From assembly GCA_011192075.1 (NCBI GenBank), contig DUER01000144.1, positions 1 through 55,836 of the forward strand: a stretch of 55,836 nt of DNA. Reading direction: 5' to 3'. Source of the DNA: Dehalococcoidia bacterium (lineage in GTDB: Bacteria; Chloroflexota; Dehalococcoidia; Dehalococcoidales; S120). Made by a program: the position numbers and the translations under genes. Within the stretch, counting starts at the first letter, position 1; every line of letters starts with the position of its first letter. The notes beneath the pieces were generated by a model. That model was not told the DNA's origin, searched no databases, and was given only the letters and a program-made list of their open reading frames with translations. This document shows positions 39,990-55,283 of this stretch, piece after piece.

Positions 39990-40394
39990 TAGATTCACCC
40001 CCTTCTATAGCTACTAAGCTATTGTCCCCTCCTGGCACAATTCATCTAGCCAGCTCCGTACCTTGACGCCTCCTAATGTTAGCGTCAATCTATTTCTAAT
40101 ACACAATTGGTACAGCATGCAGTGACATAATAACTGAGGAGTTGATAGTAGAGTATATATTGTATTTGACCCTGCCCATACTGTCAACCATAGCATGTAT
40201 TAACCTCACTTCTTTAAGCACGTGTTGCGTCAAAATGAAGTGTTACCGAATGGGGTATAGTTGAAGGTGGCGGAACATAATTACGAGCCGATACATAACG
40301 GCGCCGTAAGATATCTCTAGGACCGATCTTTGGTTTTCTCATCTAGGTCAGATTGTGTAAGGTCAACCCAGTAGCTTTCAAATGGGTCGGACAT

Positions 40395-40421: not shown

Positions 40422-40457
40422 ACCAGGTAGGTTCTTAATTCACAAAAAACGCAAAAG

Positions 40458-40810
40458 GTCAAGTAAACCTGTAAGCCGAGTTCTGTACTCCAACTAGAGT
40501 CGGAGTGGTGACCATCTATCTAGCCCTAATGTTACCATCAGGGTCAAGCGACCAACCCGGGGACAGGCCGGGCGTCCTTAAGTCCCTCTATTCGGTCTTG
40601 CTCCAGATGGGGTTTACCCAGCCGACTGGTCACCCAGCCGCTGGTGAGCTCTTACCTCACCATTTCACCCTTACCCTTCCTTGGAAGGGCGGTATGTTTC
40701 TGTGGCACTTTCCGTAGGGTCACCCCTCCTGGGCATTACCCAGCATCCTGCCCGGTGGAGCTCGGACTTTCCTCCCGCCTAAGGCGAGCGGTCACCCAGT
40801 CTACTTGACC
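40458..40810 (-). ncRNA. rnpB: RNase P RNA, bacterial type A
   Basis: The minus strand contains GGAGGAAAGUCCGAGCUCC (P4 5' strand), CACAGAAACAUACCGCC and UACAGAACUCGGCUUAC (P4 3' strand). P1 closes as CAAGUAGAC with GUUUACUUG. Confidence 0.85.
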
Positions 40811-47925: not shown

Positions 47926-48822
47926 CTAGGCTATATTCTCCAGCGCCTGCTCCAAGTCTGGAGGGAGGTCTGAGGTGAATTCTACGTATTCGCCGGTGGA
48001 GGGCAGGTTAAAGCCCAGGTGGCTGGCGTGGATGAATTGGCGTGACACATGTGCTGACCTTACCCCGTAGGTGGTGTCTCCCACCACCGGATAGCCAATA
48101 GCCAACAGGTGAACCCGTATCTGGTGGGTGCGGCCGGTTTCAGGTCTGACTTCAAGCAGGGTATGGTTACCTATATACTTAATGACCTGATATTGAGTGC
48201 GAGCTTCCTTGCCCTCAGTCACTACTGCCATGCGCTTTCGGTTACTGGGGTCGCGCCCGATAGGGGCCTCAATTAGGCCGTTCTCCGGAGTAAGATGTCC
48301 CTTAACCAATACCAGATAGGCTTTTACTACAGCGTGAGCCTTGAACTGGCTTATCAGGTTAGCCTGAGCCACACTATTCTTGGCTACTACTATCACCCCT
48401 GAGGTATCCTTGTCTAACCGATGCACAATCCCCGGTCGCAGGGAATCGCCGGTATCAGGCAGGTTAGGCAAATAGGACAGAATTGCATTAACCAGGGTAT
48501 GACTATAGTGTCCCGGTGCTGGATGGATAGTCAGCCCGGCTGGTTTATCTATGACTAAGAGGTCGTTGTCCTCGTAGATAATATCTAACGGCAGAGCCTC
48601 AGGCGATAGAGGACTGGGTGCAGTAGGAGGTATGATGATATTTACTCTATCACCAAGGTTAAGTTTGAGTCCTGCCTTGGTCACACGGTCGTTAACCGTG
48701 ATATAGCCATCGTCAATAAGCCTTTGAACCTGGGTTCGGGAGAGCTCCGGGTACTTCTGACACACATACTTATCGAGACGAGTATCCTGTTTATCAGCTA
48801 TCAAGCTATATAATTTGTCCAT
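47926..48822 (-). CDS. rluD: 23S rRNA pseudouridine synthase, RluD family
   Basis: S4 domain plus catalytic HRLDKDTSGVIVVAK. The start is trimmed to MDKLYS (48822), next to the lspA stop. Confidence 0.9.
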   Translation of the reverse strand: MDKLYSLIADKQDTRLDKYVCQKYPELSRTQVQRLIDDGYITVNDRVTKAGLKLNLGDRVNIIIPPTAPSPLSPEALPLDIIYEDNDLLVIDKPAGLTIHPAPGHYSHTLVNAILSYLPNLPDTGDSLRPGIVHRLDKDTSGVIVVAKNSVAQANLISQFKAHAVVKAYLVLVKGHLTPENGLIEAPIGRDPSNRKRMAVVTEGKEARTQYQVIKYIGNHTLLEVRPETGRTHQIRVHLLAIGYPVVGDTTYGVRSAHVSRQFIHASHLGFNLPSTGEYVEFTSDLPPDLEQALENIA

Positions 48823-48823
48823 C

Positions 48824-49324
48824 CTAGCGCTTCTCGGCTTGAACCAAGCGAAGGAGAGAGTAAGCGAATAAGATAGCACCAATAGTTACTGCCGAATCAG
48901 CAATGTTAAATGTTGGCCAGATGCCAATGCTGATGAAGTCAGTGACACCGTCAAGGTTAGGGTTCAAGCGGTCAATCAAGTTGCCCACGGTGCCGCCCAG
49001 AATTAAGCCCAGAGCTACCCTGTTTGGCATATTATCTAAGAAGGGGAAGCGACGATAGGCAAAAAGAGCATAGAACAGTAAAACGGCAATACCTACAAAG
49101 GCGGCTATAGTTAAGGCGAATGAATGTCCTTGAAATAAGCCAAAGGCGGCTCCGGTATTATGCACATGGGTTATCCGAAAGAAACCTATCTCAAAAATAT
49201 ATTGCCCTTCAGGATAAGACCTTATCCACAGCTTAGTGATCTGGTCGGCAGCTACTATTAGTATCGCAGTAAGGAAAAGGACCACGTTCCACTGCTTAGC
49301 CTGGAGATGACTTGCCTTTTGCAT
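48824..49324 (-). CDS. lspA: Lipoprotein signal peptidase (signal peptidase II)
   Basis: 166 aa with four hydrophobic spans, plus NTGAAFG and FNIADS motifs. Confidence 0.85.
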   Translation of the reverse strand: MQKASHLQAKQWNVVLFLTAILIVAADQITKLWIRSYPEGQYIFEIGFFRITHVHNTGAAFGLFQGHSFALTIAAFVGIAVLLFYALFAYRRFPFLDNMPNRVALGLILGGTVGNLIDRLNPNLDGVTDFISIGIWPTFNIADSAVTIGAILFAYSLLRLVQAEKR

Positions 49325-49691
49325 TCTTTGCCTTACAACTTAAGCACAGGTTTGCATGGGGAAGGGCTTCTAATCGGTCTGGGTCTATAGGTTGACCGCA
49401 GTCATCACACAAGCCGTAGGTCCCTTGTTCAAACTTGTCTAAAGTATGCTCCACATCAGCTAGCTGGTCTCTTATCCGTTTCTCCAAGGCTAGGCGCTTC
49501 TCTAACTCAAAGCTCTCCGTAGCCTCCTCCTCTCGTTTGCCGAAGGGACTACCCTCCCGTCGCTCACTGGCAGGACGGGCACTCATCTTTAATTGCTCCA
49601 ATTCCTCAGTTAACCGCTTCCGCTCCATCTCCACTCGAGACCGAAGTAGATTGAAGTTAGTAGTCACTTCTTCCTCCTGCTCACCTGTCAA
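49296..49691 (-). CDS. DksA/TraR-family C4 zinc-finger protein
   Basis: Coiled-coil N-terminus followed by CDDCGQPIDPDRLEALPHANLCLSCK. Confidence 0.75.
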   Translation of the reverse strand: MTGEQEEEVTTNFNLLRSRVEMERKRLTEELEQLKMSARPASERREGSPFGKREEEATESFELEKRLALEKRIRDQLADVEHTLDKFEQGTYGLCDDCGQPIDPDRLEALPHANLCLSCKAKNAKGKSSPG

Positions 49692-49781
49692 GTCTGAGAT
49701 AGGCTATTTCTGATTTTACTAACCTAGAACTGACAAGCTATTAAGTTAAATGTTACTTGAGGTAATGATAGGCAGAACAGA

Positions 49782-50252
49782 TTAGTCCAGTATGACCCGT
49801 AATTGGCGGATAGTGCTCACTGCCTGTTCCCGCCAGTGATTGTTGGTGAAGATAAAGGTCTTTCCAGCTATACTATCCAGCTTTTGAATCTTAGGCAACC
49901 ACTGTCTAAGTTCTTGCGGTGTATAGTTATAATCATACCTTTCATAAGCCTGCTCGTGTTGCCACCACTTAGCACTATTGCACCCTTGAAAGCGGATATA
50001 GCCTATCCTACTTGTTACCATAGATAGTGACGGTAATAAGAACCCCTCATCTGTTTTCTCTAAAATGGCTTTTATGCTGGACAGTTTAGGCAATGCGTAG
50101 AAAGTTGAGTCTAACTCATAGGTATTAAATTCATGGGCATAATAGACAAGCCATTCCTGCTTCGGCATACCTACCGGGTAGAAGTTTCCCACCCAATCAT
50201 CATAACTAAACCCTGAAGTGCAAAAATATATCATATCTTTAGTGTATCCCAT
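49782..50252 (-). pseudogene. DUF72-family protein with internal deletion
   Basis: The N-terminal block (CTSGFSYDDWVGNFYP..YAHEFNTYELDSTFY) and C-terminal block (YIRFQGCN..YDYNYTPQELRQW..IFTNNH) are present. The ORF is only 156 aa, against about 250-280 for the family (from memory). Confidence 0.55.
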
Positions 50253-50265
50253 TTACTTTATTTGG

Positions 50266-50337
50266 TCAATACCACGAATTGACTCATAATTAATGTTACC
50301 AAAAGTGGTATCGTTGCCTCAAAAATAGTGTTACCCA
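50266..50337. repeat. Left copy of 72-bp inverted repeat
   Basis: TCAATACCACGAATTGACTCATAATTAATGTTACCAAAAGTGGTATCGTTGCCTCAAAAATAGTGTTACCCA. The reverse complement of 51841-51912 differs at 2 positions. Confidence 0.9.
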
Positions 50338-50349
50338 AAAGGAGGCGAC

Positions 50350-50424
50350 ATGACACGAGCTAGCATACGAGAATACACTGAAGCAGTGCTAGGGCGATAT
50401 TTTGGCGGATCGAAGAAAGTATGA
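50350..50424 (+). pseudogene. 24-codon ORF resembling a DDE/rve-type transposase N-terminus (tentative)
   Basis: AAAGGAGG SD, then MTRASIREYTEAVLGRYFGGSKKV*, starting 12 nt inside the left inverted repeat. The resemblance is from memory of N-termini of the form ...SIREYxEAVRxRYLRAxKKEKGxILDEF. Confidence 0.3.
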
Positions 50425-50439
50425 ATCAAAAAGGAAGCT

Positions 50440-50657
50440 TCATTTCTCGGTTTTTCCATTGCTTCCATATCTATAACCCGGATAGGATTGGCTACATTAC
50501 TCGGGTCGAGAGCTTCTTTGATCTTGGCCAGTATCAGATGGAAACTGGCAAAAGCTGGCCCAAACCTGTTAGCCGAGCCACCGGGATGAACTCTGCCTTC
50601 ATTTACACTTGGTAAAAAGCTACCATCTTTGCACACTGGAAGACATACTGGCGGCAA
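50440..50657 (-). pseudogene. Possible C-terminal fragment of an FAD-linked oxidase-type gene
   Basis: ..FHLILAKIKEALDPSNVANPIRVI resembles the conserved C-terminal ..iKxalDPxxilNPGK tail of that family. There is no matching N-terminal part. Confidence 0.3.
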
Positions 50658-50737
50658 AGGGTGAACTAAAATCTACCGGGGGGTATTGATTGGAGACAGA
50701 AAATACCTATGCTCTAAATGGACTGAAATTCTCTTGA

Positions 50738-50770
50738 GAAAAAGGGCCTCCCCTACTTGACAAGGGGAGG
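50738..50770 (-). terminator. Orphan intrinsic terminator-like hairpin
   Basis: CCTCCCCT (50747-50754) pairs with AGGGGAGG (50763-50770). On the minus strand it is followed by CCC TTTTT. No minus-strand gene lies upstream of it. Confidence 0.4.
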
Positions 50771-50961
50771 GGTAGTGTTATAGATTTTCCAGGTGGGCTA
50801 AAAAATAACCAACTGTTAAACGCAATCAGCTAGACGTAGAATCTTGATAAAGACAACTCAGCTACTTAAGGTGTACAATACTGACTCGAGCATCATGTAG
50901 AGTTCTGTCCACAAAGGTTAACACGGGGCATAACTGCCATTCACAATAAAGGGGAGGAACT

Positions 50962-51828
50962 ATGAAGGAGTTCAAAGATAAAGTTGCAGTCATCACAGGT
51001 GCAGCCAGTGGCATTGGTCATGGCTTGGCCAAACGATGCGCTCAAGAGGGTATGAAGGTTGTTCTAGCCGATATTGATGAGGAAGCCCTAATCGTAGCTG
51101 AACAAGAAATGAAAGCGGCGGGAGCATCTGTCTTAGCTGTGGTAACGGACGTCTCAAAAGCTAGTGATGTCGAAGCACTTGCTCAGAAAACACTCGATAC
51201 TTTCAAGGCAGTACACCTGCTGTGCAACAATGCCGGCGTCGCTGCCGGTACTTCCGTCTGGGAAAGCACACTGGCCGATTGGCAATGGGTCATTGGTGTA
51301 AATCTATGGGGTGTTATTCACGGTGTTCAGGTCTTTGTCCCCATTATGCTTAAGCAAGGCACTGAGTGCCACATTGTCAATACGGCTTCTATGGCTGGGT
51401 TGATATCAATTCCATTTGGGGGGATTTACAGGGTGACCAAGTGCGGTATCATAACACTCTCCGAGACCCTATACCATGAACTGGCACAGAGAGAAGCTAA
51501 TGTTAAGGTCTCTGTCCTCTGTCCGGGAAATGTAATTAACACTCGATTCCTGGACTGCGAACGAAATCGTCCATCTGAATTACAGAATGCTCCAGCCGAG
51601 GAGAAAAGTCTCGAGTATGGGGCTCCAACGGAACCGATAAACCCGGAGCTAATGGATATAATGTCTCCCCGGGAGGTAGCCGACTTTGTCTTCAGTGCTT
51701 TGGGGGAGGAGAGGTTCTATATCTTCCCGAACCCTGGCCCTTTCAGACGTATGGTGCAAATTCGGATGGAAGATATCGCCCAAGAGCGTAACCCAACTGC
51801 ATTCAATGCCGAAGCCTGGGGAATGTGA
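50962..51828 (+). CDS. Short-chain dehydrogenase/reductase
   Basis: 288 aa with TGAASGIGHG (TGxxxGxG), NNAG and YRVTKCG (YxxxK). A strong SD (AAAGGGGAGG) is present. Confidence 0.85.
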   Translation: MKEFKDKVAVITGAASGIGHGLAKRCAQEGMKVVLADIDEEALIVAEQEMKAAGASVLAVVTDVSKASDVEALAQKTLDTFKAVHLLCNNAGVAAGTSVWESTLADWQWVIGVNLWGVIHGVQVFVPIMLKQGTECHIVNTASMAGLISIPFGGIYRVTKCGIITLSETLYHELAQREANVKVSVLCPGNVINTRFLDCERNRPSELQNAPAEEKSLEYGAPTEPINPELMDIMSPREVADFVFSALGEERFYIFPNPGPFRRMVQIRMEDIAQERNPTAFNAEAWGM

Positions 51829-51840
51829 TGGTTCTATTGG

Positions 51841-51912
51841 TGGGTAACACTATTTTTGAGGCAACGATACCGCTTTCGGTAACATTAATTATGAGTCAAT
51901 TCGTGGTATTGA
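51841..51912. repeat. Right copy of 72-bp inverted repeat
   Basis: It starts 13 nt after the SDR stop and is the reverse complement of 50266-50337 apart from 2 mismatches. Confidence 0.9.
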
Positions 51913-52153
51913 GAATGTCTAGATAAAGGACTAAACTCAAGCCCCAACATATGAACTAACCCTAAAAACAACAATATTTTGGTTGGTCACCGTAGGTGGA
52001 AAGGGTGAAAGAAGGACACTAGAGCTGCCACATAATACGGTGGTCCGACCCTTTTTGGTTGAAACAAACAAGGTCAAGGAGATAGAGGTTTCGTGCCATA
52101 TCGACTGCAGTAAACGGAAGGAAACTGTCAAAAGACTCAGAAAGGAGGAAATT

Positions 52154-53731
52154 ATGGCAAAGTGGAGTTCTCAAATAAGAGGAGAGGAAACTTGGCGAGA
52201 TGTAATGGAGTGGCGTGCTCGCATATATCCAGATAAGCTTGCCGTATGCAGTCCAGGTACAAGCAAACAGTCGACATTTAAGGAACTTAACCAGCGGGTG
52301 AACAGCCTAACCAATGCTCTAATTGGCCTCGGTGTGAAAAAGGGAGACAGGGTAGCTGTCTTGGCTACCGATATTCCCGAGTACATAGAGATTGCTAGTA
52401 CATGCAAAGCGGGGAACGTTTATGTACCACTTAATTGGAGGCTCAAAGGGCAGGAGCTAACTTACATTATCAATGATTCTGGAGCTAATACCGTGTTCGT
52501 GGAGGAGCAGTTCTGTGATACCATTCGTTCCATTCATCTCCAACTGCCTCAAGTTAAGCACTTTATCTGTATCGATGGTAGCCCTGAGGACATGCTCAGC
52601 TATAACGAATTAATCGGTAGTTACCCCTCCGATGATCCCGGTGTCGAAGTAGTGGAAAATGACATTCTAACGTTACTATATACTAGCGGTACGACAGGAC
52701 TACCAAAAGGGGTGATACGAAAGCATAGGGATACACTAAGCCACCTTAGAATGATGAATGAGGACGGGCGAATTAGAAATGATGACAGGTGCTTGTGTAT
52801 GATGCCTTTATTTCACGCAGCAATGATCCACGTCAATTTTGCATTTATTATGTGGGGTGCTACCCACTGGCTGATAAAAAAATTTGACCCTGAGGCAATT
52901 TTCGAACTTGTCCAGAGGGAGAAAATGACCTGGTTAGCTGGGGTACCCACAATGTTTATTAGTCTCACTGAACACCCTAGTCGAACTAATTATGACCTTA
53001 GTAGCTTGCGTTATATAGCTTATATAGGATCTCCCATGCCGGTGGAGGCACTAAGGAGAGCAGTGGATGTCTTCGGCCCTATTTTTTCTCAGGGATATGG
53101 GCTGAGTGAAAATACAGGGGAAACCTTACTTACTGCGGAAGACCACCTGATAGCATTAAAGGAACCAGGAAAGGAAAGGATTCTATTTTCGGTAGGGAAA
53201 CCGCTTCTTGGCTGCCAAATGCGACTGGTTGATGACAACGATAACGATGTTCCATTAGGTGGGATGGGTGAGATAATATTTCACAGCGACCATATAATAG
53301 AGGGATATTGGAACAAGCCCGAAGAGACTGAACAAGCCCTGAAAAATGGTTGGCTGCATACCGGTGATATAGGCAAATTGGACGAGGATGGCTATCTCTA
53401 TATCGTTGACCGAAAAAAGGACCTAATCATTAGCGGTGGGGAAAACATTTCCTCTAAGGAGGTTGAGGATGTAATCTATGCTCATCCTGCAGTGTTAGAG
53501 TGCGCCGTAATTGGTGTCCCCAGTGAGAGGTGGGGAGAGGAGGTGAAGGCTATAGTGGCTCTAAGAAAGGGGATGACAGCTACTTCAGAGGAGATTATAG
53601 ATTACTGTGTAGAACATTTGGGTGGGTTTAAGAAGCCCAAGTCAGTAGAAATCCGGGATGAGTTGCCTAAGAATCCTGTGGGTAAGATAATGAAGAAGGA
53701 GCTCAGAGAAAAGTACTGGGCTGCTCCGTAA
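52154..53731 (+). CDS. AMP-dependent acyl-CoA synthetase/ligase
   Basis: AMP-binding motif LLYTSGTTGLPKGV, with YGLSE, TGDIG and IVDRKKDLI motifs. The start is trimmed to ATG 52154, behind AAAGGAGG. Confidence 0.85.
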   Translation: MAKWSSQIRGEETWRDVMEWRARIYPDKLAVCSPGTSKQSTFKELNQRVNSLTNALIGLGVKKGDRVAVLATDIPEYIEIASTCKAGNVYVPLNWRLKGQELTYIINDSGANTVFVEEQFCDTIRSIHLQLPQVKHFICIDGSPEDMLSYNELIGSYPSDDPGVEVVENDILTLLYTSGTTGLPKGVIRKHRDTLSHLRMMNEDGRIRNDDRCLCMMPLFHAAMIHVNFAFIMWGATHWLIKKFDPEAIFELVQREKMTWLAGVPTMFISLTEHPSRTNYDLSSLRYIAYIGSPMPVEALRRAVDVFGPIFSQGYGLSENTGETLLTAEDHLIALKEPGKERILFSVGKPLLGCQMRLVDDNDNDVPLGGMGEIIFHSDHIIEGYWNKPEETEQALKNGWLHTGDIGKLDEDGYLYIVDRKKDLIISGGENISSKEVEDVIYAHPAVLECAVIGVPSERWGEEVKAIVALRKGMTATSEEIIDYCVEHLGGFKKPKSVEIRDELPKNPVGKIMKKELREKYWAAP

Positions 53732-53841
53732 ACCCAGTGCTGGCGAGAGAAGAGGATTGCGACATCGTGCCTACGTACAAACTTAAGAAGGTAGCATAAT
53801 AAGGCAGGCTTGGTTGTACATATGGTTTTTCCCCAGTCGGG

Positions 53842-53898
53842 GCTCCTCGCTGTTAACAATTGGGGGTAGTGACAAGTAGCAAACTGCCAGCGAGGAGC
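53842..53898 (+). promoter_or_regulatory. 11-bp-stem hairpin in the leader of the intact FAD gene
   Basis: GCTCCTCGCTG (53842-53852) pairs with CAGCGAGGAGC (53888-53898), with a 35-nt loop. Confidence 0.35.
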
Positions 53899-53945
53899 AG
53901 GGTGAATGGTTCCGAGCTAGATCCACAGAAATGAGGAGGTGATTT

Positions 53946-55283
53946 ATGGCTAAAAGATATGATGTAATCGTAGTTGGTGCTGGTCCAGCCGGGTTTGTAG
54001 CAGCCAAGGCGGCTGGAGAAAATGGGCTTGAAGTTGCCCTCCTAGAAAGGAAACCTGACGTTACGCAACTCACCAGAGCTTGTGCTCAAACCCTAGTCTC
54101 CATGAACGAGTATATATTTGACGAACTATGCATATACAACGCCAGGGATAAACGAATCAGCTTTCCCGTAAATGGGTTTTCCTTCAAATATGATGGCCCC
54201 TACAAAAATATGTATGCCTGCCATTTCTACACTCCCAACGGCCACATAATAGAACTTGGTGACCTAAAAAAACAAAGAGAGAAAGGGAACCACGGGATTG
54301 TGGGCGTTGCCTTCGATAAGGAAATACTATTCCGCTGTCTGCTAGAAGAGGTAAAAGCCTGTAGCGTTGATGTCTTTCCCGGAATAAACGTGAGTAAAGT
54401 AACCAGAACCACTGACGGGGTAAAAGTCGAGGGAAGTGGAAGGGAGTTTGAAGGAACCTATCTCATCGCCGCCGACGGGGTAAACTCACGTATAGCCCAG
54501 GTGACGGGGTTTAATAAAGACCGCACCTATTACTGTAACTTCTATGGCTTAGTCTATTACATGTCTGGCGTAGAGCCCCCAGAACCCGATGTGATTATAT
54601 TTACCCATGTTTTTGTGAAGGGAGGCGCGGCCATGATCTTTATAATGCCTCGGCCAACGGATGGAGATTACATCGTTACCGGAGCAACCGTTGACTCTGG
54701 AGTAGACCTCGAAGCGGCTTGCGATTACTTTATGAAAAAGGAATTCTGTGCTTCATGGTTTAAGAAAGCTAAGAAATTGAGGGCATTCTCTGCGACATGC
54801 AATTGTTATTCTCCCGTCATTAGTCCCTATAAAGACCGGATTCTCCTCGCCGGAGACGTGGGCTCAACACAGGAATTGGAAAATACAGGAGCCATGATAA
54901 GCGGTTGGAAGGCAGGACAGGCTGCCACCACTGCCGTGCAGGAGGAAAACCTGGGATTAGAAGTTACGGGCATCTCTCAGTATCTTGATTGGTGGACAAA
55001 AGCCTACGTCAACTCCTACAATCATGAGACCTACATGAAAACCTGGGCACTTACCCATATCTTGACCACAGAAGAGGAGATAAGCTACGCCTTCGGCCTT
55101 ATTAAGGAAACCCTACGTCCCTGCTGGAACCCCTATAGGTCGCCACTAGCCCAAGGCTTAAAAAAGGCGATGCCCACTATCCAGCATGAGAGGCCTGAAG
55201 TGCTGCAGAAACTGGGAACAATGAGCTTACCACTTAATAAAATTTTTACTGAGGTGACCAAGCTCAGTAAACCGATATCATAG
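53946..55283 (+). CDS. FAD-dependent oxidoreductase (geranylgeranyl-reductase-like family)
   Basis: 445 aa with YDVIVVGAGPAGFVAAKAA and AADGVNSRIA. This is the intact paralog of the 22387-23726 pseudogene. Confidence 0.8.
   Translation: MAKRYDVIVVGAGPAGFVAAKAAGENGLEVALLERKPDVTQLTRACAQTLVSMNEYIFDELCIYNARDKRISFPVNGFSFKYDGPYKNMYACHFYTPNGHIIELGDLKKQREKGNHGIVGVAFDKEILFRCLLEEVKACSVDVFPGINVSKVTRTTDGVKVEGSGREFEGTYLIAADGVNSRIAQVTGFNKDRTYYCNFYGLVYYMSGVEPPEPDVIIFTHVFVKGGAAMIFIMPRPTDGDYIVTGATVDSGVDLEAACDYFMKKEFCASWFKKAKKLRAFSATCNCYSPVISPYKDRILLAGDVGSTQELENTGAMISGWKAGQAATTAVQEENLGLEVTGISQYLDWWTKAYVNSYNHETYMKTWALTHILTTEEEISYAFGLIKETLRPCWNPYRSPLAQGLKKAMPTIQHERPEVLQKLGTMSLPLNKIFTEVTKLSKPIS

Follow-up and report, generated by a model that had tools for sequence, protein, structure and literature searches.

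A 1.65-kb inverted-repeat cassette in a Dehalococcoidia genome is best explained as host DNA between two decayed left ends of a promoter-directed insertion sequence

Mobile elements can insert at a fixed short distance from a landmark and spare host genes, as Ty3 does where RNA polymerase III starts transcription and Tn7 does at attTn7. Among bacterial insertion sequences (IS), members of the ISAba32 subgroup of the IS1202 family place their left inverted repeat (IRL) 5 bp from XerCD sites, in a fixed orientation and with a 5-bp duplication of the target (bioRxiv 10.1101/2022.12.17.520857; Siguier, Rousseau, Cornet, Chandler). Here, we analyzed a contig of a Dehalococcoidia bacterium (GenBank assembly GCA_011192075.1, contig DUER01000144.1), whose whole length of 55,836 nucleotides (nt) we call the window. 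Positions 50266 to 51912 hold a 1.65-kb cassette, bounded by near-identical 72-bp inverted repeats and carrying a short-chain dehydrogenase (SDR) gene. We conclude, with a probability of roughly 0.85, that this cassette is ordinary host DNA flanked by two left ends, both decayed, of one IS family, an evolutionary scar and not a device. The IS from which these ends derive, hereafter the Chloroflexi IS, almost always has its left end beside a host promoter, at a distance of exactly 5 bp on the upstream side of the −35 box, with the transposase-proximal end toward the promoter.

The ISAba32 subgroup is the closest known precedent in mode of action. Both are elements of about 1.3 kb with a single rve-type DDE open reading frame (ORF), both have their transposase-proximal left end exactly 5 bp from a landmark in one orientation, with a 5-bp duplication, and in both the flank of the right end is unconstrained and copies without duplication are common. 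They differ in the landmark, which is a sigma70-type promoter for the Chloroflexi IS and an XerCD site (xrs) for the ISAba32 group, and in the termini, CGAATTG and CGTGTTG in the former and TGT in the latter. Seven residues after the catalytic E, in HVEQKNWSVVRR, the Chloroflexi transposase has V (with R at +8) where the IS1202 family has Q. Sizes touch at the lower limit (1316–1344 bp and 396 aa, in some copies 405 aa, versus 1320–1990 bp and 400–500 aa for IS1202/ISAba32), and the target repeat is 5 bp in the Chloroflexi IS and 5–6 bp in the ISAba32 subgroup. Acinetobacter, a host of ISAba32-group elements, was not among the main hosts recovered when plasmids were searched by tblastn with the Chloroflexi transposase. 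On landmark, termini, the residue at E+7, and hosts, the Chloroflexi IS thus falls outside that family.

Other families are close in some respects and distant in others. IS481 shares the single rve-type ORF without frameshift, the N-terminal helix-turn-helix region, and a short target duplication, but the Chloroflexi transposase falls far under the cut-off of the curated IS481 model (44.5 versus 224 bits). Terminal inverted repeats starting with 5′-TGT are found in IS3 and IS481 (bioRxiv 10.1101/2022.12.17.520857), whereas the ends of the Chloroflexi IS do not start with TG or TGT and are each about 65 bp long and bipartite, with two subrepeats. Elements filed as “ISNCY family” on rhizobial, Marinobacter, and Sphingobium plasmids show 42–47% identity over nearly all of the 396 aa and carry subterminal CG(N)ATTG[AC]CTC repeats, twice at the left end, as the Chloroflexi IS does. 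In contrast to it, they have transposases of about 500 aa with an additional C-terminal part of about 100 aa, an additional outer terminal module of 25–30 bp that forms an inverted repeat, and what look like 7-bp duplications (GTTGTTT, ACCGCTG). In Marinobacter, the copy sits inside a coding gene of aldehyde dehydrogenase type, and no sign of promoter targeting was seen in the three such elements examined (L106, L107, and L108, from Marinobacter, Sinorhizobium, and Rhizobium plasmids). Ty3 and Tn7 rely on eukaryotic long terminal repeat and Tn7-type machineries, respectively. Finally, the remnants in the window are like decayed solo IS ends generally in all essentials; what is unusual is their inverted layout, from oriented, promoter-directed insertion.

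The arms and the insertion sequence family

The geometry described by the original prediction holds. The arms, 50266–50337 and 51841–51912, are reverse complements at 70 of 72 nt; a 24-codon ORF (MTRASIREYTEAVLGRYFGGSKKV, then a stop) lies at 50350–50424 behind a Shine-Dalgarno (SD) sequence, AAAGGAGG, 12 nt past the left arm; and the right arm begins 13 nt past the stop of the SDR ORF. A repeat search returned the same pair of arms, extendable to 101 nt at 85%, and by our own arithmetic the chance expectation for such a pair in 55.8 kb is about 1e-30. Each arm consists of two parts: the outer 9 nt are host DNA (TCAATACCA), that is, a 5-bp target and the TTGA of a −35 box, and the inner 63 nt belong to the IS, whose first nucleotide is at 50275 on the left and at 51903 on the right.

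This assignment comes from intact copies, in which the core of the arm precedes a DDE transposase gene. The suspicion that the repeat was IS-derived and that the 24-aa ORF was a truncated transposase N terminus was thus borne out: in intact copies, the repeat is followed by a gene for a 396-aa protein that starts with MTRASIREYTEAVRGRY and matches the short ORF (some copies encode 405 aa). On its own, the 24-aa peptide is too short to be recognized by family libraries or a homology search. A 29-mer taken from the inner half of the arm has exact matches in 76 metagenome contigs with unrelated contexts, many of them with a full transposase, so that the alternative of a 72-mer unique to this locus, with no transposase-bearing relative, does not stand. 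The same 29-mer also occurs in a marine Dehalococcoidales metagenome-assembled genome (MAG) and in Lake Tanganyika Chloroflexi MAGs, one of which has at least 11 contigs ending in the repeat; an outer 28-mer probe, which took in the 9 nt of host flank, matched none of the genome contigs. In many cases the distance from the 29-mer to a contig end is exactly 127 nt, as is typical of a repeat in many copies at which short-read assemblies break off.

The transposase carries the motifs D...DSDNGSEF...HVEQKN in one ORF that is uninterrupted in more than 10 copies, and hence is a single rve-type DDE ORF without programmed frameshift. It scores 29.5 bits against Pfam rve (gathering score, 32.6), which is the precomputed domain for most of its homologues, and its best NCBIfam model is IS481 (NF033577; E = 1.3e-11). 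More than 8000 relatives are present in databases, nearly all on contigs of 1.3–2 kb and labeled “transposase [Dehalococcoidales]” at most, or “hypothetical.” Complete elements measure about 1318 bp (range, 1316–1344 bp). Their termini, CGAATTGAC and CGTGTTGCG, are the same in 12 complete copies, and each end is made of two subrepeats of about 26 bp that are about 36 nt apart. The left end reads CGAATTGACTCATAATTAtTGTTACCGAAAGTGGTATCGTTGCCTCAAAAATAGTGTTACC and is followed by the SD sequence; the right end, read inward, is CGTgTTGCGTCAAAATAAAcTGTTACCGAA..GG.....TTGCGTCATAAATCATGTTACCGAA and resembles the left one at 74–79%, with a 1-nt indel. In one copy (L100, 1036–1053) the left terminus carries a 9-nt tandem duplication (CGAATTGCG CGAATTGCG), and there the promoter register and the 5-bp duplication both agree with the outer copy. 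The IS is an abundant lineage of Dehalococcoidia and Chloroflexi metagenomes, unnamed and uncharacterized so far.

The two mismatches between the arms fall at arm positions 36 and 41, i.e., IS nt 27 and 32 (window 50301/50306 and 51872/51877). In the IS consensus these two nucleotides form the G·T pair of a small hairpin, TACCG-AAAG-TGGTA, which is present in 60 of 75 loci. At this pair, the left arm has changed to A-T and the right one to G-C; the related strain L026 retains G·T. Folded as single-stranded DNA, the arm is no better than shuffled sequences (z = −0.5 to −0.9).

Insertion beside host promoters

Where does this IS insert? We aligned the host DNA at the left terminus of 66 non-redundant sites, read outward from the IS. 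The flanks follow the consensus N5-TTGACA-N17-TAnAAT. Positions 1 to 5 vary, nGGTA being weakly preferred. Positions 6 to 11 match TTGACA (T in 63 of the 66 sites, then T in 58, G in 56, A in 49, C in 48, and A in 44), and positions 29 to 34, after a 17-nt spacer, match TAnAAT (T 51, A 53, A 44, A 35, T 55). At offset 5, 41 of the 66 flanks satisfy a strict promoter criterion, or 48 if spacers of 16 to 18 nt are allowed; the same criterion at 12 other offsets is satisfied by 0 or 1 sites, and shuffled flanks give 0.1 on average. The first ORF of at least 80 aa is directed away from the IS in 46 of 60 sites, at a median of 68 nt past the −10 box. No motif was found in the flanks of the right end. 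Three copies with 82–85% protein identity, which were recovered through the protein and not through the DNA probe, conform to this rule, with a divergent gene on the side of the left end.

The five variable positions are the target duplication, as seen for GGAAG in L100 and GTCCC in L101. A further pentanucleotide, GCTCA in L018, belongs to the only right end that lies at a Tanganyika contig end, and a left flank of that sample (L038) is its only partner. In ten complete copies on short-read contigs the duplication is absent, which we attribute to chimeric assembly over a high-copy repeat or to recombination between copies; a like argument has been made for IS1202-family elements without duplication (bioRxiv 10.1101/2022.12.17.520857). 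We also considered that the flank motif might be a dif or xrs site. We rejected this possibility, given that the motif lacks an 11-6-11 palindrome, occurs at dozens of places in a genome, and is followed by genes that have SD sequences. The promoter-landmark rule appears not to have been described before, as we found no account of promoter-directed IS insertion in the searchable literature, the coverage of which is incomplete and no proof of novelty.

Origin of the cassette

Remnants of the IS were placed by blastn of intact copies against the window. Both arms of the cassette turned out to be the beginning of the element, in opposite orientations and both truncated (Table 1). Since both are the same, left, end, the cassette is not a single IS with its inside replaced, and the idea of a hollowed-out IS fails: the true right end is much less similar to the arms than they are to each other. 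The same search found no further IS fragment in the interior, and the reading frame of the left stump runs into foreign DNA and stops at 50422–50424. Beyond each stump lie the target pentanucleotide and then a host promoter, and the two promoters, called independently by a consensus scanner, point away from the stumps.

These observations are best accommodated by two insertions of the IS, the left end lying in each case 5 bp upstream of a host −35 box. One copy would have entered at the leftward-firing promoter of a DUF72 gene and a second one at the rightward-firing promoter of an acyl-CoA ligase gene. Because the left end always lies toward the −35 box and the promoters face apart, the left ends come to lie inverted, with their termini outward. 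Internal deletions would then have taken the transposase genes and the right ends, sparing IS nt 1 to about 145 on the left and nt 1–63 on the right, and leaving between the stumps a piece of host DNA, i.e., the SDR unit and non-coding scraps. We infer the order of these events, the two separate insertions in place of one replicative inversion, and the deletions as spontaneous decay. The stumps are now probably without function, save for weak inward hybrid promoters (see below). Of the origins listed by the original prediction, it is “two solo IS ends trapping DNA” that the evidence backs.

The SDR unit in relatives bears on what lies between the stumps. In L079 (1046–1524; 91% nucleotide identity) it is present without arms, and homology to the window stops exactly at 51840, to be followed by ffh. 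In L084 (1–1424) the unit, equivalent to window 50868–51832, is tandemly duplicated, again without arms. Homology to these relatives also shows that the region upstream of the SDR gene is kept from at least 50798. The presence of an arm-less SDR unit with differing neighbors shows that it is host DNA whose neighbors vary by lineage; the SDR gene is a host gene and not cargo of the IS, and the inner edge of the right stump is a rearrangement breakpoint. The SDR region is a rearrangement hot spot.

Several observations weigh against this history. No empty site was recovered for either promoter in a search via relatives of the ligase, whose contigs end 75–116 nt upstream of the gene or have a different context, so that the pre-insertion state is itself something we infer. 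In L079 it is ffh, and not the ligase, that follows the SDR gene; a simple history of deletion would have to have removed essential DNA there, unless the SDR copies are paralogous. Moreover, the nine host bases beside both stumps are identical, TGGTATTGA, a string that is fully shared by none of 64 other sites and matched at 8 of 9 positions by 3 of the 64. This identity is probably due to both promoters belonging to one promoter/leader family: the right flank matches the consensus of that family (see below) at 30 of 34 positions and the left flank at 21 of 34, a score that only 2 of 53 other sites reach. A gene conversion or a duplicative event behind the nine identical bases is a less probable alternative.

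How do other explanations of the same structure fare? One is that a single intramolecular replicative inversion produced both ends, an IS at the DUF72 promoter having attacked the ligase promoter and both copies having decayed later. By our own derivation from the standard model, the predicted topology is indeed that of left ends outward, each beside a promoter, and the inversion would account for neighbors of the SDR gene unlike those in L079. However, relatives of this class of transposase (IS3, IS481, and IS1202) are thought to use copy-out-paste-in transposition via circles and not cointegrate-type transposition (bioRxiv 10.1101/2022.12.17.520857), and the inverted 5-bp copy by the internal right end, which would be diagnostic, has been deleted, leaving nothing specific in support. 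We consider this origin improbable. We give even less credit to a mobilizable element with an IRL at each end, composite or similar to a miniature inverted-repeat transposable element (MITE), in which the SDR gene would be cargo moved by a transposase acting in trans. Such an element would have what it needs, since both arms keep a complete 63-nt bipartite left end, inverted and with the termini outward, and sources of intact transposase are plentiful in the same kind of host. Against it, the unit was found at this one locus only, in five assemblies, with no second copy elsewhere, and relatives have an SDR unit that lacks arms. The flanking TACCA and TGGTA are reverse complements of each other and not the 5-bp direct repeat made by this IS. 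Each end also sits at its own complete promoter in the canonical register, an arrangement to be expected of two insertions and very unlikely from one.

A switch for DNA inversion, or a structural or regulatory palindrome, is the least credible of these origins and in our view hardly deserves consideration. Repeats of 72 bp at 97% could allow occasional RecA-dependent inversion, and both mismatches affect the same base pair of a small hairpin. Four independent contigs of the same species, from at least three samples and collinear with the window, nevertheless cover both arm junctions, all in the orientation of the window (Table 1), and no inverted form was found among them. There is no recombinase ORF among the annotated neighboring genes (DksA-like, DUF72, SDR, ligase, and flavin adenine dinucleotide [FAD] reductase). 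Both promoters lie outside the repeats, so that inversion would change nothing obvious, and a palindrome is disfavored by the folding result given above and by a sequence that is entirely explained as an IS end. Mobility and inversion of the cassette, which the original prediction had entertained as a MITE-like cassette and an invertible segment, are hence both unsupported. The reading that we retain is that of two decayed left ends with host DNA between them.

Table 1. Coordinates of IS remnants, promoters, genes, and collinear contigs in the window
Feature	Window position	Strand	Details
Left IS stump	50275–50419	+	IS nt 1–126 at 96.8% (L061, L068; to 50400), nt 1–145 at ~90%
Subrepeats of left stump	~50279–50305, ~50315–50341	+	
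Contents of left stump		+	Inward −10 CATAAT, SD, ATG 50350, 23 transposase codons
Right IS stump	51903–51841	−	IS nt 1–63, 98.4% to L061/L068; both subrepeats, neither SD nor ATG
Solo right end (outer subrepeat only)	40221–40263	−	IS nt 1281–1318 at 40258–40221, 92% over 38 nt, E = 1.5e-9; to 40263 (43 nt in all) with other copies
Target pentanucleotide TACCA	50270–50274		Between −35 box and IS left terminus
Target pentanucleotide TGGTA	51904–51908		Adjoins right stump; register as at other sites
DUF72 promoter	50241–50269	−	−35 TTGACC (50269–50264), 17-nt spacer, −10 TACACT (50246–50241); consensus scanner
Ligase promoter	51909–51937	+	TTGAGA-17-TAAACT; scanner; then ~210-nt conserved leader and ligase ATG 52154
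Predicted inward hybrid promoters	50263–50290; 51915–51888	+; −	16-nt spacer, −10 CATAAT inside IS
Non-IS interior scraps	50420–50961		108-aa ORF, hairpin, SDR upstream region
108-aa ORF	50331–50657	−	No match in Pfam, NCBIfam, or PDB sequences
Terminator-like hairpin	50747–50770	−	CCTCCCCTTGTCAAGTAGGGGAGG plus T-run; scanner
SDR gene, intact	50962–51828	+	NCBIfam PRK06194, 349.6 bits (cut-off 308); Pfam adh_short
DUF72 ORF	49782–50252	−	156 aa; left neighbor
RNase P RNA, bacterial class A	40456–40807	−	Rfam RF00010, 315.6 bits
Contig L057, sample Ga0164321	48028–51087		98.2%, collinear
Contig L026, sample Ga0164321	51288–53971		99.1%, collinear
Contig L077, sample Ga0499539	50735–54534		99.2%, collinear
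Contig L078, sample ERZ23498475	50486–52204		99.8%, collinear

Neighboring features, targeting, and implications

The left neighbor of the cassette, the DUF72 ORF, probably carries an internal deletion, because it has only 156 aa and the 217-position Pfam profile is matched in two separated stretches. Its true start is likely to be ATG 50234 and not 50252. The −10 box of its promoter lies 6 nt before this in-frame ATG, which opens MIYFCTSGFSY, a stretch that we take to resemble typical DUF72 N termini, and suggests that the mRNA is leaderless from this codon. The right neighbor is an AMP-dependent acyl-CoA ligase. Exact protein look-ups for the SDR and DUF72 products gave no match, and the context of the SDR gene was reached via a cluster representative (P0001). 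In the interior, the 108-aa ORF had been taken by eye for the C terminus of an FAD oxidase, a candidate that was dropped for want of support in Pfam, NCBIfam, and PDB sequences. The terminator-like hairpin is strong, with no minus-strand gene upstream, and is presumably a leftover of a deleted gene. A contig carrying the ligase gene (L104, 1–1831) is 99% identical to the window over 1367 nt, with the other ~460 nt unaligned, which suggests recombination or a chimeric assembly inside that gene.

The promoter and leader of the ligase (window 51904–52153) belong to a recurrent family, gGTATTGACAAAC-N10-AGGACTAAACTCAAGTCCCAACATATGAAATAACC, in many cases with a terminator-like hairpin (AAGGGCAC...GTGCCCTTTTT) behind it, that occurs upstream of varied genes (also in L002, L012, L014, L015, L029, L040, L041, L055, L063, L064, and L065). 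The ligase leader has no match in Rfam; the family could represent a small RNA, an attenuator, or a propagated promoter. At some distance from the cassette, a solo right end of the IS sits just downstream of the RNase P RNA gene. This remnant is on the minus strand, as is the right arm, and the two might be taken for parts of a single IS that was split. We rejected this possibility: they are separated by 11.6 kb with core genes, among them polA, gltX, and rnpB, and they adjoin different pentanucleotides (AAGCA versus TGGTA). AAGCA fits neither stump.

How the IS finds promoters can be addressed by the flanks themselves. The transposase would either read TTGACA directly or be guided by promoter-bound RNA polymerase or a sigma factor. 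A TTGAC also opens the terminal subrepeat of the IS, on the other side of the junction and almost equally far from it, which counts for direct reading; insertions away from promoters would in that case be lost to selection. The fixed 17-nt spacer and the −10 signal count for complete promoters and guidance by the polymerase. The −35 box is better conserved (first T, 95%) than the −10 box (A2, 80%; T6, 83%), which fits the −35 box as the primary determinant. Insertion may also serve the element. Read inward, the complement of the host −35 box (TTGTCA in 21 sites) lies 16 nt upstream of the CATAAT of the IS, giving TTGTCA-16-CATAAT as a predicted hybrid promoter for the transposase; in 46 of the 66 sites this inward −35 box has at least 4 of 6 matches to TTGACA. 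The promoter of the transposase may therefore be completed only upon insertion beside a host promoter. Put together, these features allow a tentative and rather doubtful model, in which the lineage uses housekeeping (sigma70-type) promoters as its landmark, makes a 5-bp staggered cut just upstream of the −35 box, always in the one orientation, maybe via promoter-bound RNA polymerase or sigma region 4 and not by DNA sequence alone, and completes its own promoter from the complement of the host −35 box.

Taken alone, the cassette is ordinary IS debris, for which the annotation “IS remnants” suffices. Its interest lies in the IS lineage that it revealed and in promoter-directed, orientation-specific insertion, a target rule akin to the xrs targeting of the ISAba32 group with another landmark. 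The flanks of this IS provide a map of dozens of native promoters in uncultured Chloroflexi, whose promoters are otherwise unmapped. If targeting is guided by the polymerase or a sigma factor, the lineage would be a bacterial counterpart of Ty3-style targeting, a “safe haven” strategy that spares core promoters and genes. Such dependence on RNA polymerase or sigma factors would also make it a tractable bacterial model of integration guided by the transcription machinery, and possibly a tool for promoter-proximal insertion.

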